This document shows, one piece after another, positions 15,936-44,981 of a stretch of DNA of 64,000 bases; position 1 is the first letter of the stretch, and each line of letters opens with the position of its first letter. The stretch lies in the NCBI GenBank assembly GCA_964425075.1, contig CAYRKM010000001.1, positions 395,060 to 459,059 on the forward strand, given 5' to 3'. This stretch comes from an uncultured Gammaproteobacteria bacterium. GTDB lineage: Bacteria; Patescibacteriota; Microgenomatia; Levybacterales; GWA1-39-11. Both the position numbers and the translations under genes were made by a program. A model generated the notes under the pieces. That model did no database searches. It was not told where the DNA came from and saw only the letters and a list, made by a program, of their open reading frames with translations.

Positions 15936-16040
15936 ATACATATGTATGATTATATTTCGTTTGGATTTATATAGCTAGTAATTATAACTCATGGTTTTCA
16001 ATAAAAAAGAGATAATAGTGCTTTTCTATTGCCTTATGCC

Positions 16041-23945: not shown

Positions 23946-24539
23946 CTAGTTTGAGTTTGTTGAACCTGTAACATTTACAGTTGTAGTGGTTGTATTGTCA
24001 TCAGTATTGATGTCATTAGCGCCACCAACGTTACCGTTAGCATTATTGCCCCCAGTGTTTTGAACTGTTGTTACGTTTGTGCTAACAATTGTGGTATTTT
24101 TTTGCTTCACAATGTTTTTGCAAAGATCGATTACCAAAGCTCCATTAACTGAGCCAGCACCATTGTGATGTATGTCAACCGTTGTTTCGCCTTGTCCATC
24201 ACAACAACAGCTTTCTGCTGTGTTGGTATTGGTTCCACCTGCAACAGTCACATTTGTTGTTGTCGTATTTTTACCTGTAGTAATGGTATTTCCGCCACCA
24301 ACGTTACCGTTAGCATTATTGCCCCCAGTGTTTTGAACTGTTGTTACGTTTGTGCTAACAATTGTGGTATTTTTTTGCTTCACTTTCGATTTAGAAAGCT
24401 TTACAATAAGCGCTCCGTTGACTGAGCCAGCACCATTATTATTGATTTCAATTGGTGCAGCGAATGCTGTCGGGACTACCAAAGCCGCCATCATTGTTCC
24501 AGTTGCGATAGCTGTTGTAATTTTGTATTTAATATTCAT
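23946..24539 (-). CDS. Secreted repeat protein (2 internal repeats), paralog D
   Basis: SD aaggaggtga. Signal peptide ...VVPTAFAAP. Duplicated NNGAGSVNGAL..KQKNTTIVSTNVTTVQNTGGNNANGNVGG unit. CCCDGQ motif. Confidence 0.75.
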   Translation of the reverse strand: MNIKYKITTAIATGTMMAALVVPTAFAAPIEINNNGAGSVNGALIVKLSKSKVKQKNTTIVSTNVTTVQNTGGNNANGNVGGGNTITTGKNTTTTNVTVAGGTNTNTAESCCCDGQGETTVDIHHNGAGSVNGALVIDLCKNIVKQKNTTIVSTNVTTVQNTGGNNANGNVGGANDINTDDNTTTTTVNVTGSTNSN

Positions 24540-24604
24540 TTTTTTTATTCACCTCCTTTCAAGCTAAGATATCTCCGATTTACGTTTCGGCAAACGTACT
24601 AAAA

Positions 24605-25456
24605 CTATGCTTCACAGAAAGATTCTGCTTCAGCGTTACAATAATCATTGTCTGCGCCTCCGTTGGCATCATCTGTTCCTCCATCACCTTTTAGTGAATC
24701 AGAACCTACTCCTCCAAAAAGATGGTCGCTTCCAGAAGCTCCTTTAATAGAGTCGCTTCCATTCTCGCCATACAACCAATCGTTTCCTTCATTTCCCTGA
24801 ATAGCATCACTACCATTTCCACCGAGAACTACATCATTACCGCCTTGTCCGTGTATGGCATCACTTCCATTTCCTCCTACAATACAATCATTGCCTCCCT
24901 TACCGTTAATGACGTCACTTCCTCCTTTTCCAAGGATTAAGTCAGGACCGCTAGTACCATTTAGTACTTCACTTGCTTCTGTTCCTTCAATGACGTTGTA
25001 TTCAACTTCATCATCACATTGCTCAGGAATGTTTGAAGGAGGCGTTGCCTCAATCTCATCCGCTGATCCGGCAGGCATTGTAAAGGTTGAACAATTACCA
25101 TCAGTTGTTCCGCTGATAGATCCATCGTTTGCTATTGTTCCATTACCATTTAATGTATAGCCGAAGTTTGCACCGGTATAAACAAGAGCAAAGGTAATAC
25201 TGCTTCCATCTATTGTGCCGTCAATATCCCATGTGTATGAAGCATCTGCGTCAAAATCACCTGTTCCGGCAAACACTCCGTTTACGTCCTGAGAAACCGT
25301 ATTGAGAGTGTGAGCATAGTCAGACCCTCCGCAATTAAAAACTATAGCTTTCGGTGCTGTTAATTCCCAGTTTGGGGCTGCGAATGCTGGCATTGCAACA
25401 TTTCCAAAAAGAAGAGCTGCTGCAGCTCCTGTCGTTAAAATTTTTTTTATATTCAT
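24605..25456 (-). CDS. Secreted protein with RTX-type calcium-binding beta-roll repeats
   Basis: SD gagggggtga. Signal peptide MNIKKILTTGAAAALLFGNVAMPAFAAP. Multiple GGxGxD nonapeptides (GGNGSDAIHGQGGNDVVLGGNGSDAIQG...). Confidence 0.75.
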   Translation of the reverse strand: MNIKKILTTGAAAALLFGNVAMPAFAAPNWELTAPKAIVFNCGGSDYAHTLNTVSQDVNGVFAGTGDFDADASYTWDIDGTIDGSSITFALVYTGANFGYTLNGNGTIANDGSISGTTDGNCSTFTMPAGSADEIEATPPSNIPEQCDDEVEYNVIEGTEASEVLNGTSGPDLILGKGGSDVINGKGGNDCIVGGNGSDAIHGQGGNDVVLGGNGSDAIQGNEGNDWLYGENGSDSIKGASGSDHLFGGVGSDSLKGDGGTDDANGGADNDYCNAEAESFCEA

Positions 25457-25865
25457 TTTTTTCACCCCCTCTCGTGTAAAATCGCCCTGCCATTCCATAT
25501 GAACTTTCTAAGCATTTACTGCATCAATGCAGGCACAAAAAAACAACCATATCGGTTGTTTAGCAATTTGTGTTGTATAAAAATTTCATAGGCAGGTTCA
25601 TGTTTTTTCTCCTGCCTCTTCTCGCGAAAGCTCAAATTAGGCAGGTTAAATTAGCTACTGCCCTTTATCTAAAAGAAGATTTAGGCAGATTCAAATAAAA
25701 AAATAAGGAATAACGCTTAAGTGGGCAAGAATGAATACTTAGCAATTAACAGAGTATTGTATTAGTAGTTTTATTAAAAAAACGTTGATGTGTCAAGGTA
25801 AGCAAAATGGATACATTTGGATTAAAAAGTGTCAATATTCTTTTCACGGTTTTAGAGTGGTTAGC

Positions 25866-25895
25866 TTGACTTCAAGCGCTATTTTCTGCTAAAAT
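25866..25895 (+). promoter_or_regulatory. Sigma70-like promoter
   Basis: TTGACT(18)TAAAAT. Confidence 0.5.
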
Positions 25896-25951
25896 GAACA
25901 CAATAAAGTGTTATATTAGGTTCTTGCTAAATATAACTAAAGTAATGTGCG

Positions 25952-25976
25952 CGGTGGGACAACCCACCGTTTTTTA
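25952..25976 (+). terminator. Intrinsic terminator-like hairpin + T6 immediately upstream of the nusA ATG
   Basis: cggtggg-acaa-cccaccg followed by tttttt. The ATG is 4 nt later. Confidence 0.6.
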
Positions 25977-25979
25977 AAT

Positions 25980-26978
25980 ATGCCAGCAATACAAAGAAGC
26001 GAGTTTGCGCTCGCACTTAACCAAATAGCAACCGAAAGGGGAGTGGATCCTCAAGATATTCTTGAGAGCATAAAAACTGCAATTTTAGCGGCTTACAAAA
26101 AAGATCACGTCCCAGCAACTCTTACAGAAGATGAAGTTGATGAAACTGTTTACTCTGCTGAAATTAACCCTCAAACTGGAGAAACCAAGATAATTCATGA
26201 AGGAATTGACGTAACGCCTCCAGGTTTTGGACGAATTGCAACACAAACAGCAAAGCAAGTTTTGCTTCAAAAAATAAGAGAAAGAGAGAAAGACGCAGTC
26301 ATGTCAGAATATTCTAAAAGAATTGGGACCGTAGTAAATGGAATGATTTTGCGATTTGCAGGACCCACTATAATCGTTGATATTGGAAAAGCTGAGGCTA
26401 TTATGCCTCAAGCACAAAGAATACAAAACGAGCAGTATTTTTTAAATAAAAAAATCGCTGTATATATAGTAGAAATTGCAGAGGATGAGAAAAGAGGACG
26501 GGAAATTATTGTGTCCCGTACTCACAATGGTCTTTTGGAAGGACTTTTGCGCCGTGAGGTTCCAGAAGTTGCTGCAGGAAATGTAATAATTAAGGCAATT
26601 ATAAGAGAACCAGGTTCAAGAGCTAAAATCGCAGTACATTCAGACCAATCTGGGATTGATCCAGTTGGAAGCTGTGTTGGACAAAAAGGAGTCCGAATTC
26701 AGGCTGTAATTGATGCAGTTGACGGACTTGAGAAGATTGATGTCATCCAGTGGAATCAAGATCCTGTTAGGTTTATTACTAACGCGTTGTCTCCCGCAAA
26801 GAATTTAACCGTTGAGGTAAATGAAAAGGAGAAAATAGCAAAAGTTACAGCTCCTCAGGAGGAATTGCCTCTTATTATTGGTCGTGAAGGACAAAACGTA
26901 AGACTTGCTTCAAAACTCACTGGTTATAATATTGAAGTAGAAGGAAGTAATGAGCCAATTGCTGAAGTTGAAGCTTAG
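25980..26978 (+). CDS. nusA: Transcription termination/antitermination factor NusA
   Basis: N-terminal domain, S1 domain and two KH domains. Conserved order nusA-infB. Confidence 0.9.
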   Translation: MPAIQRSEFALALNQIATERGVDPQDILESIKTAILAAYKKDHVPATLTEDEVDETVYSAEINPQTGETKIIHEGIDVTPPGFGRIATQTAKQVLLQKIREREKDAVMSEYSKRIGTVVNGMILRFAGPTIIVDIGKAEAIMPQAQRIQNEQYFLNKKIAVYIVEIAEDEKRGREIIVSRTHNGLLEGLLRREVPEVAAGNVIIKAIIREPGSRAKIAVHSDQSGIDPVGSCVGQKGVRIQAVIDAVDGLEKIDVIQWNQDPVRFITNALSPAKNLTVEVNEKEKIAKVTAPQEELPLIIGREGQNVRLASKLTGYNIEVEGSNEPIAEVEA

Positions 26979-27005
26979 TATGAGAGTTCTAACGCACATA
27001 ACAAT

Positions 27006-28487
27006 ATGGAAGATAAGAAACAATTTACACAATACCCTCCAGTCGTATCTGTTTTAGGTCATGTAGACCACGGAAAAACCACACTTCTTGACGCTATCCG
27101 AAAAAGTAATATCGCATCAGGCGAGGCTGGTGGAATTACTCAATCTATTGGTGCTTCAAGCATTGAAATTGATTCCTTCGATTCTTCTCAGGGCAAGCAT
27201 GAAGGCAAAAAAAGGTGGATTACCTTTATCGATACACCCGGTCATGAGGCTTTTTCTAATATGCGCTCCCACGGAGTGTCAGCATCAGATGTGGTTCTTC
27301 TAATAGTTGCAGCAGATGATGGGATAAAGCCTCAAACCATAGAGTCAATTGAAAAAATTAAAGCATCCAATCTTCCTTATATCGTTGTAATTACAAAAAT
27401 GGATGCTCCTGGAGCTGAAATTGAGAAAGTAAAACAGCAATTATTAAAAGAACAAGTTTTGCTTGAAGGACTTGGTGGAGACGTGCCATATATAGGAGTG
27501 AGTGCAAAAACCGGAGAAAAAGTTTCTGATCTTCTAGATCTTATCGCAATTGTTTATGACATAAGAGAAATTAAAAAAAGCGAGACTGAGGACTTTTTGG
27601 GTGTTGTAATTGAGGCAAAGCTTGATAAAAGACGGGGGATTTTAGCATCAGTTATTGTTAAAGCAGGCAAACTTGCAGTTGGAGAAAAAATATATTTTGA
27701 GGCAAAAGAAGTTGGAAAAGTGCGGGCACTGGTTGATACATTTGGAAAACAGGTTAAAGAGGCTCTGCCAGGGGATGCGGTTGAGATTTTGGGGTCTACT
27801 GAGGTGCTCTCTGCAGGTTCACTTCTTGCCACAAAACCCGGAGCTCTTGTTGTTGCACAGGCAAAAGAAGTAGCTAAATATACCTCAGCTGATTTAATGA
27901 AGCATTTAGCTGAAATAAAAGAGGAAAAAGTAAATATTGTTCTTAAAACCCACACAAGTGGTGAATTGGAGGCTATATCAGAGTCACTCCCTGAGGATGT
28001 TCAGGTAATTTTTGAGGGAAGAGGAGATATTGGAGTATCAGACGTTATGATGGCCAAAGACTTTAATGCAATTGTTGTCGGCTTTAATGTAGATATTGAG
28101 AAACAGGCGAAAATTCTTGCAGACACACAGGGAACTTTCTACAGAAATTACACGATTATCTATAACCTACTTGATGAATTAGCAGATGCAGTTACTCTTA
28201 TCAAAGAGCGAGCTCAGCGTAAAATATTTGGAAAAGGACAAATTTTGGCGGTATTTGAAGGTAATGAAGGTAAAATTCTTGGAGTAAGGGTTGATGAAGG
28301 AAAGCTTAAAGTTGGAGATACAATTGTAATTACTAGGGGAGTAAATGAAACTTCATCTTCAAAAATAATGTCACTAAAGCAAGGTAAAAACGATATTAAA
28401 GAAATAGGAAAAGGGAATGAATGCGGAATTATGATTGACCCTATGGTTGACTTTACTATAGGGGATATGGTAATATCCTGGGGCTAA
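27006..28487 (+). CDS. infB: Translation initiation factor IF-2 (short form without long N-terminal extension)
   Basis: G1 motif GHVDHGKTTLLD, G3 motif DTPGHEAF, G4 motif TKMD. Confidence 0.9.
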   Translation: MEDKKQFTQYPPVVSVLGHVDHGKTTLLDAIRKSNIASGEAGGITQSIGASSIEIDSFDSSQGKHEGKKRWITFIDTPGHEAFSNMRSHGVSASDVVLLIVAADDGIKPQTIESIEKIKASNLPYIVVITKMDAPGAEIEKVKQQLLKEQVLLEGLGGDVPYIGVSAKTGEKVSDLLDLIAIVYDIREIKKSETEDFLGVVIEAKLDKRRGILASVIVKAGKLAVGEKIYFEAKEVGKVRALVDTFGKQVKEALPGDAVEILGSTEVLSAGSLLATKPGALVVAQAKEVAKYTSADLMKHLAEIKEEKVNIVLKTHTSGELEAISESLPEDVQVIFEGRGDIGVSDVMMAKDFNAIVVGFNVDIEKQAKILADTQGTFYRNYTIIYNLLDELADAVTLIKERAQRKIFGKGQILAVFEGNEGKILGVRVDEGKLKVGDTIVITRGVNETSSSKIMSLKQGKNDIKEIGKGNECGIMIDPMVDFTIGDMVISWG

Positions 28488-28531: not shown

Positions 28532-29773
28532 ATGAATCCACAGATTTCACAGGAAATTAATTTTTTGCGCGACATGCTACAAAACCATAATGATGTTGGA
28601 ATCATTGTGGGAAATCATCAAACAATTGATACGATGGCCTCATCTCTTGCCCTCTATCTTTCCTTATCTCAAAGCGGAAAACAAGTTCAAATCGTTTCTT
28701 TAAAAGATCCAATCGTTGAATTATCAAATCTTGTAGGAATAGATAAAGTAAAAAAAACTTTTGCAGGGAACACAACTAAATTAGTTGTTTCTTTGCCTTA
28801 CAAAAAAGGTGAAGTTGAGAAGGTGCTTTTTACTGAAGCGCCATCAACTATTAATTTCCATCTTACTGCGGCTGAAGGAAAAAGTATTACACCATTTGAC
28901 ATAAAAGATGTTCATCTTAATTGGGAAGGTGGGGCTCCAGGTTTTATTATTGCCGTGGGAGTTGGAACAATAGATGAATTCTCTCAAATAATTGATATTA
29001 ACAATACAAAAATTGTAAATATAGATAACTACCCTCAAAATACTAGATTTGGGGATGTTGTTTTGGTTGATGAGTCTTTCTCTTCACTCTCTGAGGTAGT
29101 AGGTAAGATCATTAAAGACCTTTCTCTTCCATTAAACATTGATAGTGCGCAGAATCTTTTAGACGGTGTTTTATTTGCAACTCGAAATTTCACGAAGCCA
29201 AACACTTCTCCTTTTGCATTTGAAACAGCATCAAGTGCTATGTACCAAGGGGCACAGAGACGAGAAAATAGGGATAATAACAGAGGAGGACAGCGTGAGC
29301 AAGGGCAGACCCCTAGAGAGCCAATGCAGCCACAGCGTTCGAACCCACAACAGCAAAGACAAAGAGTAAATGAAAATGATTTTCCAGCTATGCATATGCA
29401 AAATAGGCCACAACAGCCTCAAATGCCAAGACGACCTCAGTCAGCATTGGGTCAGCGACCTCAACCACAAATGCCACGTCCACAAAACACTCAGCCCCAA
29501 ATGAGTCCGCAGGATATTATTAATAAAATTAGACAAGAGACACCTGTAAGACAACCCCAACCACAAGTAGAGCCTGTCTATGAGGAAGGTCAATTTGATG
29601 CCATTTCTTCTCAAGCTCCAGAGCCAATGGATAACAATTCTATGCCTTTTGATAACGAGCCACCATTTCCACCTCAACCACAGGAAAATGCTGTTTCAAG
29701 TCAAAATACTGAGGAAATTCCAGATGATTGGTTAATGCCAAAAGTCTTCAAAAGCTCCAAGAATCAGAATTAG
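28532..29773 (+). CDS. DHH-family phosphoesterase-like protein (NrnA-like) with Q/P-rich C-terminal low-complexity tail
   Basis: N-terminal region is NrnA-like, but the DHH motif reads GNHQTIDTMAS (degenerate). ~150-aa Q/P/R-rich tail. Confidence 0.5.
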   Translation: MNPQISQEINFLRDMLQNHNDVGIIVGNHQTIDTMASSLALYLSLSQSGKQVQIVSLKDPIVELSNLVGIDKVKKTFAGNTTKLVVSLPYKKGEVEKVLFTEAPSTINFHLTAAEGKSITPFDIKDVHLNWEGGAPGFIIAVGVGTIDEFSQIIDINNTKIVNIDNYPQNTRFGDVVLVDESFSSLSEVVGKIIKDLSLPLNIDSAQNLLDGVLFATRNFTKPNTSPFAFETASSAMYQGAQRRENRDNNRGGQREQGQTPREPMQPQRSNPQQQRQRVNENDFPAMHMQNRPQQPQMPRRPQSALGQRPQPQMPRPQNTQPQMSPQDIINKIRQETPVRQPQPQVEPVYEEGQFDAISSQAPEPMDNNSMPFDNEPPFPPQPQENAVSSQNTEEIPDDWLMPKVFKSSKNQN

Positions 29774-44276: not shown

Positions 44277-44981
44277 ATGACAAAAGGCAAAGAGATGGAA
44301 GAAATGGGAATAACCCCAAACGTAGAACATTCTGAAGGATCGCAGGTACCTCTTGCGACAATGGCTGACCTAGAAGCTGTTTTCAGATTTTTACTGTATG
44401 ATAAAATTATTGCATCCATGGTAAGGGATGGATTCAAAACACCCTGGGGGGAGTTTTCCGATAACAAGTCTATACTTGAGGCATGTGCGATTGCTTTAAA
44501 AAGCTCACATGGGAAATTAAATCCAGACGAATTTATTGAAGAACTTATTGCAAACAAACTTTTGCATACAAGCTTTGAATTAGATGCCTTATATAGAACC
44601 AGTAGTAACCGTTTTGCTGATGATAAAACACGAGTAAGAGGGCTTTATGTCTATGACTGGGCAAAATTAGAAGGTTTGGGCTTGATAGAAGAAGGTCCAA
44701 AAGAAAGTATAGGTAATAGTTATGGTATACCACAGGATATTTATGAGCATTTACGTACTAACGCTGCTCTTGAGGAACCTTATGAGGGAACAAGTAGAAT
44801 TGGTCGTAGATATGATGGAGAATATACACGCGTAGTGAGTCAAACTGCCTACTCGGGAATAAGCGTGGATTATATTCTGTATCGTGGGGGTCCTAAGAAC
44901 CATAATATTTTGGGCAGAAGCTATGTGACTACAACACCTGATGTTTGGAGTACAGTTTTTGCTTCCATGGTACAGTTCTAG
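44277..44981 (+). CDS. Hypothetical protein
   Basis: 234-aa ORF with no recognisable motifs. Confidence 0.5.
   Translation: MTKGKEMEEMGITPNVEHSEGSQVPLATMADLEAVFRFLLYDKIIASMVRDGFKTPWGEFSDNKSILEACAIALKSSHGKLNPDEFIEELIANKLLHTSFELDALYRTSSNRFADDKTRVRGLYVYDWAKLEGLGLIEEGPKESIGNSYGIPQDIYEHLRTNAALEEPYEGTSRIGRRYDGEYTRVVSQTAYSGISVDYILYRGGPKNHNILGRSYVTTTPDVWSTVFASMVQF

Follow-up and report, generated by a model that had tools for sequence, protein, structure and literature searches.

A conserved hairpin upstream of nusA in Levyibacteriota as a very probable compact member of the rimP-leader family

The nusA-infB operon and its leader

The window, that is, the whole stretch of 64,000 nucleotides that was analysed, comes from a bacterium of the candidate phyla radiation and carries an operon whose first gene is nusA (25980-26978, + strand, 332 aa; Pfam NusA_N and KH_5). 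The second gene, infB (27006-28487, + strand), encodes a short IF2 of 493 aa (Pfam GTP_EFTU, IF-2 and EF-G_D2). The NusA of the window aligns along its length to the solved structures of M. tuberculosis and T. maritima NusA, and its architecture is of the short NTD-S1-KH1-KH2 type, without the C-terminal AR domains. Its N-terminus (MPAIQRSEF, read from the ATG at 25980) is kept in relatives and the sequence 5' of this ATG diverges, so that an alternative start at the GTG at 25947, which would fall inside the leader and hairpin described below, was rejected. A tblastn search for rimP gave no detectable match, either in the window or among the candidate-phyla-radiation loci (E > 0.2), and no tRNA or tmRNA gene, sought by analogy with the metY gene upstream of the E. 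coli operon, was found in the 64-kb window.

Upstream of nusA lies a sigma-70-type promoter (25866-25895, + strand), with a -35 box TTGACT at 25866-25871, an 18-nt spacer and a -10 box TAAAAT with a TG extension at 25890-25895. It agrees with the consensus at 10 of 12 positions and is the top promoter-like site within 24000-28000, so that the promoter proposed in an earlier note on this DNA was confirmed both in the sequence and by the scan. Judging from the position of the promoter, transcription would start at about 25902, giving a predicted leader of ~78 nt; leaders down to ~45 nt are predicted in relatives. In the nusA region as a whole we observed seven promoter-like sites where 9.6 were expected, which alone is not above chance, and nine terminator-like sites where 3.0 were expected, which is. 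Since promoter-like matches by themselves occur at chance level, the case for a unit of promoter and hairpin rests on conservation.

The candidate attenuator (terminator) hairpin occupies 25951-25970 (+ strand), with the arms GCGGTGGG and CCCACCGT on either side of the loop ACAA (as RNA, GCGGUGGG-ACAA-CCCACCGU). Its stem consists of seven Watson-Crick pairs and a closing G.U pair (-14.1 kcal/mol), and contains the conserved core, in which GUGGG (25954-25958) pairs with CCCAC (25963-25967). A T6 run at 25970-25975 (+ strand), AAAU and the nusA start codon come next, the hairpin ending 9 nt and the T-run 4 nt before the ATG at 25980. The earlier note had placed this terminator at 25952-25976. 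The GC-rich hairpin, the ACAA loop and the T6 it described are all there, but the hairpin has the boundaries given above and the T6 ends one base earlier. Likewise, the note was right that no SD precedes nusA, as there is no SD-like motif in the 20 nt 5' of the ATG, but this absence provides no clue, because such motifs are found 5' of just 7 of 49 gene starts in the window, compared with 15.8% of random ATGs, which is the background rate. Hexamers resembling a -10 box and ending 4-13 nt before the start codon were found for 15 of the 49 genes, as opposed to 7% of random ATGs. With SD-like motifs at background and -10-like hexamers close to the starts, many mRNAs of this genome look leaderless.

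The U-tract, UUUUUUAAAU, has a distal interruption, as described for NusA-dependent terminators, and stands beside a stem that is strong. For such a stem, followed by U6, a helper factor is not obviously needed, which is a counterpoint to models of NusA feedback. The signature GGTGG-N(3-30)-CCACC has a single occurrence in the window when both strands are scanned. The only other hairpin of the leader, predicted in the minimum-free-energy fold at 25910-25937 (+ strand), is AU-rich, lies outside the conserved element and is specific to the window genome, being missing from relatives with their spacing of just 7-25 nt from -10 box to conserved hairpin.

Conservation of the hairpin in Levyibacteriota and in distant lineages

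Reference genomes scanned with the NusA protein yielded 19 loci, belonging to Candidatus Levyibacteriota (Microgenomates group, Patescibacteria, candidate phyla radiation) or to assemblies labelled otherwise, with NusA proteins 72-86% identical to that of the window. Each of the 19 has exactly one GGTGG...CCACC hairpin, just 5' of nusA and on the nusA strand, at 9-47 nt from the ATG. The core GGUGG/CCACC is invariant throughout, and the loop (3-14 nt), the flanks and the length of the leader vary. The pair just outside the core switches among C-G, U-A, A-U and G.U, and in some Levyibacteriota the innermost G-C pair of GGG/CCC is replaced (e.g. by U-A in L016) or lost; hairpin free energies lie between -8.3 and -15.2 kcal/mol. 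In 18 of the 19 loci the stem is immediately followed by a T-run, the exception being L019, which keeps the hairpin without a U-tract. The -35 box is TTGACT in 15 relatives and TTGACG in one, and in three others (L012, L014 and L015) the promoter, read by eye, is TTGTCA-16-TATAAT. The RNA between promoter and hairpin has no common sequence across relatives and, where the distance was measured, the conserved stem lies 7-67 nt from the -10 box. This distance is 51-67 nt in the window and in L007, L011 and L013, and in five relatives (L005, L006, L010, L018 and L019) the stem begins 7-11 nt past the -10 box.

The relatives also bear on several simpler readings of the hairpin. It is not the terminator of the upstream gene, because that gene is not the same from one relative to another and, in most of them as in the window, is divergent. 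Regulation by alternative RNA folding can be excluded as well. Folding of 25902-25995 keeps the terminator, with no competing pairing seen, and in the five relatives with a near-5'-terminal stem there is no room for an upstream transcribed partner. The only long complement of the 3' arm (78%), at 25772-25794, lies upstream of the -35 box and is therefore untranscribed from this promoter. A leader peptide or translational coupling was considered for a 27-aa ORF (25894-25977) that stops 2 nt before the nusA ATG, but relatives lack this ORF, and its own ATG and the -10 box overlap. Nor can the GGUGG of the 5' arm be a sequestered SD, as it is at least 20 nt from the start codon, at a variable distance, in a genome that hardly uses SD sequences. 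Finally, resemblances to a CsrA-type GGA site or to a mimic of the tRNA-His acceptor do not persist across the relatives.

Beyond Levyibacteriota, alignment of NusA proteins and scanning of metagenome contigs yielded 80 further loci, with 37-66% identity between their NusA and that of the window and a GC content of 26 to 73%, so that many phyla must be represented. A hairpin of the form G[U/C]GGG-loop-CCC[A/G]C with a U-rich tail was found at no more than 160 nt from nusA in 35 of these loci, and in a further 18 at 508-677 nt upstream of nusA, i.e. 5' of rimP; the ORF between the distal hairpin and nusA was RimP by Pfam in all three loci tested. In these 53 loci NusA is 37-55% identical to the window protein and GC content is 26-72%. 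Where the hairpin is directly 5' of nusA, its distance to the start codon, over all loci, is 8-124 nt. Elsewhere in the distant loci (259 kb) the signature hardly occurs, the few matches being the same site, opposite strand, or two strays, and across 73 sequences the hairpin unit is always 5' of nusA or rimP and on the same strand. The element is altogether absent from L020-L022 and L028, even though NusA in these loci is 63-66% identical to the window protein, closer than in any locus with the distant form, and it must thus be dispensable; in the lineages that these loci represent, nusA looks leaderless.

We aligned 49 of the distant leaders (alignment A2), in which the spacing between the arms reaches 20 nt. 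Five of nine stem pairs change on both sides, values that none of 500 shuffles reached, and in six of the leaders C-G or U.G takes the place of the U-A pair of the core. Since the members of this alignment were picked by pattern, the invariance of the four core pairs is partly by construction; this does not apply to the covariation of the four outer pairs.

Relation to the rimP-leader family

An element of this kind was named "rimP-leader" by Naville & Gautheret in 2010 (Genome Biol 11:R97, PMC2965389), who described it as the most widespread of transcription attenuators. The general form (Figure 2b in PMC2965389) is a short terminator with an unusually conserved GGGc...gCCC stem motif followed by a U-stretch, located 4-130 nt before the gene, without an antiterminator and with a signature found in no other terminator. 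A protein sensor was proposed, RimP being considered and NusA favoured (PMC2965389), since NusA represses its own operon in E. coli.

The window element has every defining feature of the general rimP-leader except a downstream rimP. The two share a G-rich 5' arm, a C-rich 3' arm, GGG...CCC and a directly following U-stretch, the core of the window hairpin being identical to that of the 49 distant leaders, and the window also agrees in the distance to the gene (9 nt, within the 4-130 nt range), in the nusA-infB operon, in the lack of an antiterminator and in having a signature specific to the operon. There are nevertheless differences. The published c...g pair of GGGc...gCCC is not present in the window, where the loop ACAA starts at that position; the host is a candidate-phyla-radiation bacterium, and the block that is invariant in Levyibacteriota is GGUGG/CCACC, unlike that of the general form. 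The first gene in the window is nusA rather than rimP, but since the hairpin is also directly before nusA in 35 of the 53 distant loci, a missing rimP does not exclude membership in the family.

Searches with Rfam models gave no match in the whole window at the gathering threshold, nor in 25300-26200 at E up to 10, and none, RF01770 included, in ten distant metagenome loci at E up to 1. As a positive control, RF01770 found the E. coli leader with 102 bits, its gathering threshold being 47 bits. Because RF01770 covers only the form of Gammaproteobacteria, we trained a covariance model (R1) on the 49 distant leaders, none of which is from Levyibacteriota. With filters off and both strands searched, its top match in the window is 25946-25981 (+ strand; 19.4 bits, E = 0.04), a modest score because the motif is short, and the next match is an unrelated terminator (E = 0.39). 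R1 recovers the same site in eight Levyibacteriota loci, and in E. coli it matches best at the second RF01770 hairpin, CUGGGC-UUUA-GCCC with U7 after it. This 3' hairpin of RF01770 is the counterpart of the hairpin in the window. The E. coli element is nonetheless larger: RF01770 is 102 nt long and has an extra upstream CCCCG...CGGGG hairpin bearing the inverse motif CCCg...cGGG, whereas the sole upstream hairpin in the window is AU-rich and unconserved. Taken together, the comparison makes it very probable, as judged from sequence, that the window element is the Levyibacteriota member of the general rimP-leader family.

Two systems in which nusA autoregulation has been reported are of particular relevance here. 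In the metY-rimP-nusA-infB operon of E. coli, NusA represses its own operon (Plumbridge 1985, Nakamura 1985, cited in PMC2965389), and, as in the window, the first protein-coding gene is separated from the promoter by terminators; E. coli, however, has tandem hairpins and the tRNA gene metY upstream, and there is no tRNA in the window. In B. subtilis, NusA-stimulated termination in the leader of the nusA operon is reported to autoregulate nusA (Mondal 2016, Nat Microbiol, as summarised in PMC12288461). In both B. subtilis and the window, the 5' leader of the NusA-encoding operon contains an intrinsic terminator, and B. subtilis is the mechanistic precedent for negative feedback through termination stimulated by NusA. 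The B. subtilis leader is ~180 nt long and precedes rimP (ylxS) (PMC2965389), as opposed to the ~78-nt leader before nusA in the window.

A proposed mechanism and its alternatives

The element must act either as a terminator or as a hairpin that is read by a factor, and the conserved U-tract argues for termination, which would take place in vivo at 25951-25975. We consider it likely, from the sequence of the locus and by analogy with the systems above, that this termination depends on NusA and provides feedback. Transcription of nusA-infB would start from the promoter at 25866-25895 and, about 50 nt into the RNA, the hairpin at 25951-25970 would fold, with U6 coming next. A fraction of the polymerases would then terminate, 4-9 nt before the nusA start codon. 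Since there is no alternative antiterminator fold, this fraction would be set by a protein acting on the hairpin or on the elongation complex, most likely NusA, as suggested by the content of the operon and by published precedent. More free NusA would result in more termination and hence in less nusA-infB mRNA, i.e. in negative feedback.

One may also consider explanations other than feedback by NusA. The hairpin could be a constitutive, unregulated element, either a leaky terminator that lowers output or a 5' hairpin serving to stabilise the mRNA or to insulate a start site without SD. The 5' end of the transcript is where known stabiliser hairpins are located, and in several relatives the hairpin would indeed be at the very 5' end (7-11 nt past the -10 box); L019 lacks the U-tract, SD sequences play little part in this genome and the ATG comes after a U/A-rich tract. 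In the window, L007, L011 and L013, however, the hairpin is too far from the -10 box (51-67 nt) to be 5'-terminal, the U-tract is directly 3' of the stem in 18 of 19 relatives as well as in distant loci, and an invariant GUGG/CCAC core that is unique to one operon is not something that a stabiliser or a generic terminator requires, all of which renders a constitutive role unlikely. Alternatively, the stem may bind a protein other than NusA (IF2, a RimP whose gene lies elsewhere, or a ribosomal or assembly factor) that would set termination or the translation of read-through mRNA. That the stem is kept in sequence as well as in pairing suggests specific recognition, infB is co-transcribed with nusA, and RimP was weighed by Naville & Gautheret (PMC2965389). 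Yet neither the window nor the Levyibacteriota loci nor the 35 other hairpin loci have rimP beside nusA, the published experimental precedent (PMC12288461) is for NusA, and a fixed relation to a ribosome-binding site is disfavoured by a hairpin-to-start distance of 8-124 nt where the hairpin is directly 5' of nusA and by the occurrence of the element before rimP as well as before nusA; we therefore regard another binder as quite unlikely.

The two remaining alternatives have far less in their favour. The earlier note had raised the possibility of an independent sRNA, here one of ~75 nt that would extend from promoter to terminator and function in trans. There is indeed a unit from promoter to terminator, and attenuation is expected to yield a short terminated RNA as a by-product, but the part before the hairpin (7-67 nt) is neither constant in length nor conserved in sequence and so offers no candidate seed, there is no match to an Rfam family, and in 73 sequences the unit always immediately precedes nusA or rimP, in the same orientation, making such an sRNA very improbable. 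The perfect palindromic half-sites GGTGGG and CCCACC could also be viewed as a DNA operator for a dimeric repressor downstream of the promoter. This is extremely improbable, since an arm spacing of 3-14 nt in relatives and of up to 20 nt in alignment A2 could not fit a fixed dimer, the flanking pairs show the covariation of RNA pairs, G.U included, and the T-run is always 3' and on the coding strand only. The note's other proposal, a compact attenuator in the nusA leader, is supported: the check it had suggested, conservation and covariation of the hairpin in related genomes, found the hairpin in 19 of 19 relatives (with a U-run in 18) and in 53 distant loci, with covariation of five of nine pairs in 49 distant leaders, and the features of the rimP-leader and the precedent in B. 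subtilis point in the same direction; sensing by NusA is suggested by analogy.

Assuming that feedback by NusA does operate here, it is tempting to speculate about what is being read. The invariant GUGG(G)/(C)CCAC might be a sequence-specific site for the S1-KH1-KH2 part of NusA, making the terminator uniquely sensitive to free NusA, in a circuit that would be ancient and that would be found in its minimal form in Levyibacteriota. We consider this possible but rather doubtful. As a counterpoint to NusA as the reader of the stem, NusA is not known to recognise hairpins by their sequence. If such recognition is true, the circuit would be an ancient one that spans the candidate phyla radiation, Firmicutes, Actinobacteria-like high-GC lineages and Proteobacteria. 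Its minimal natural version would then be the one in Levyibacteriota, where the hairpin lies at the start of the transcript or close to it, with no adjoining rimP and a 332-aa NusA without AR domains, from which it would follow that neither a cis-encoded RimP nor the C-terminal domains of NusA are required.

The kind of element described here has been known since 2010 and has experimental support in B. subtilis. What is new is modest, namely an instance from the candidate phyla radiation, in a very compact form, with no adjoining rimP and a minimal NusA. The Levyibacteriota instance mainly widens the known range of the rimP-leader and, being missed by Rfam, shows how little of the family RF01770 spans. 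It is valuable as a minimal test case in which to ask what reads the sequence-conserved stem, a question that stems from the 2010 description and for which we found no answer in the literature. In Levyibacteriota the whole regulatory RNA can shrink to a hairpin and a U-tract, a few nucleotides past the start of transcription.

Loci departing from the leader hairpin with its U-tract

The conserved terminator hairpin that lies directly 5' of nusA is absent from the nusA leader in four of the more distant metagenome loci, L020, L021, L022 and L028, whose NusA proteins are 63-66% identical to that of the window. In the upstream regions concerned (L020:1100-1290, L021:330-505, L022:800-975 and L028:930-1110) one finds an extended -10 box, TGGTATACT or TGATATACT, ending 7-13 nt 5' of the nusA ATG. 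Since the box lies so close to the start codon, nusA itself looks leaderless in these four loci, where the attenuator has been lost. A different departure is seen in L019, one of the close Levyibacteriota-type loci, where the hairpin is kept (L019:2960-3003, GUGGUGGG-AUUA-CCCACCAC) and the stem is followed by ACAUUAAGUAUU, without a U-tract. This may reflect either a role of the hairpin beyond termination or an attenuator that is decaying in that locus.

A few of the distant leaders carry a hairpin that resembles a tRNA T-arm, e.g. GUGGG-UUCGAUU-CCCAC (L048:386-402, L063:1442-1458 and L095:1436-1451). The likeness is curious in that the initiator tRNA gene metY stands in front of the same operon in E. 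coli, and it may be a coincidence.

The title "uncultured Gammaproteobacteria bacterium" is borne by many of the reference assemblies in which a Levyibacteriota-type nusA locus is found (L001-L008, L010, L013, L015, L016, L018 and L019). The NusA proteins of the loci so titled share 74-85% identity with the window protein, and so do those from assemblies labelled Levyibacteriota; the Gammaproteobacteria titles of these loci look like mislabels.

Surroundings of nusA

The intergenic region between nusA and its divergent neighbour contains three direct copies of TAGGCAG(G/A)TT (25589-25693, at spacings of 49 and 44 nt), together with an inverted partial copy at 25606-25617. A 9-mer of this array occurs five times in the window, as against 1.3 expected, and the array is not conserved at the corresponding position in relatives; it may be a regulator-binding array. 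A 27-aa ORF (25894-25977, plus strand), with its stop 2 nt before the nusA ATG, was also considered and is most likely a chance ORF, because it begins with an ATG that overlaps the -10 box and has no counterpart in relatives.

The divergent gene (24605-25456, minus strand) encodes a product with four RTX calcium-binding nonapeptide repeats, and its ATG at 25456 is preceded by a strong SD, GGGGGTG, of a kind found in few genes of the window. About 85 nt upstream of this start lies a terminator-like hairpin (25541-25561, minus strand), with a 9-bp stem, AAACAACCG/TGGTTGTTT, followed by T7, which either is a second leader of the "terminator before gene" type or closes a minus-strand transcript, so far unannotated, that comes from 25562-25860.

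On the other side of nusA, the IF2 encoded by infB (from 27006, plus strand) is very short (493 aa), its match beginning at the GTPase domain, without the N-terminal extension. The position after infB, often taken by rbfA or truB, is here occupied by a 413-aa ORF (28532-29773, plus strand) in which no Pfam domain was found.

Gene starts and possible leaderless mRNAs

When every long ORF is taken to begin at its first start codon, admittedly a crude calling, an SD-like motif precedes only 7 of the 49 genes across the whole window, which is the background rate. A TATAAT-like hexamer ends 4-13 nt 5' of the start codon in 15 of the 49, compared with 7% of random ATGs. Examples of this SD-poor, leaderless-looking pattern are the starts at 44277, 45033, 51404 and 60490 on the plus strand and at 15941, 37218 and 61950 on the minus strand. 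Because SD motifs do not exceed background and -10-like hexamers lie so close to the starts, these observations suggest that leaderless mRNAs are widespread in this Levyibacteriota genome.
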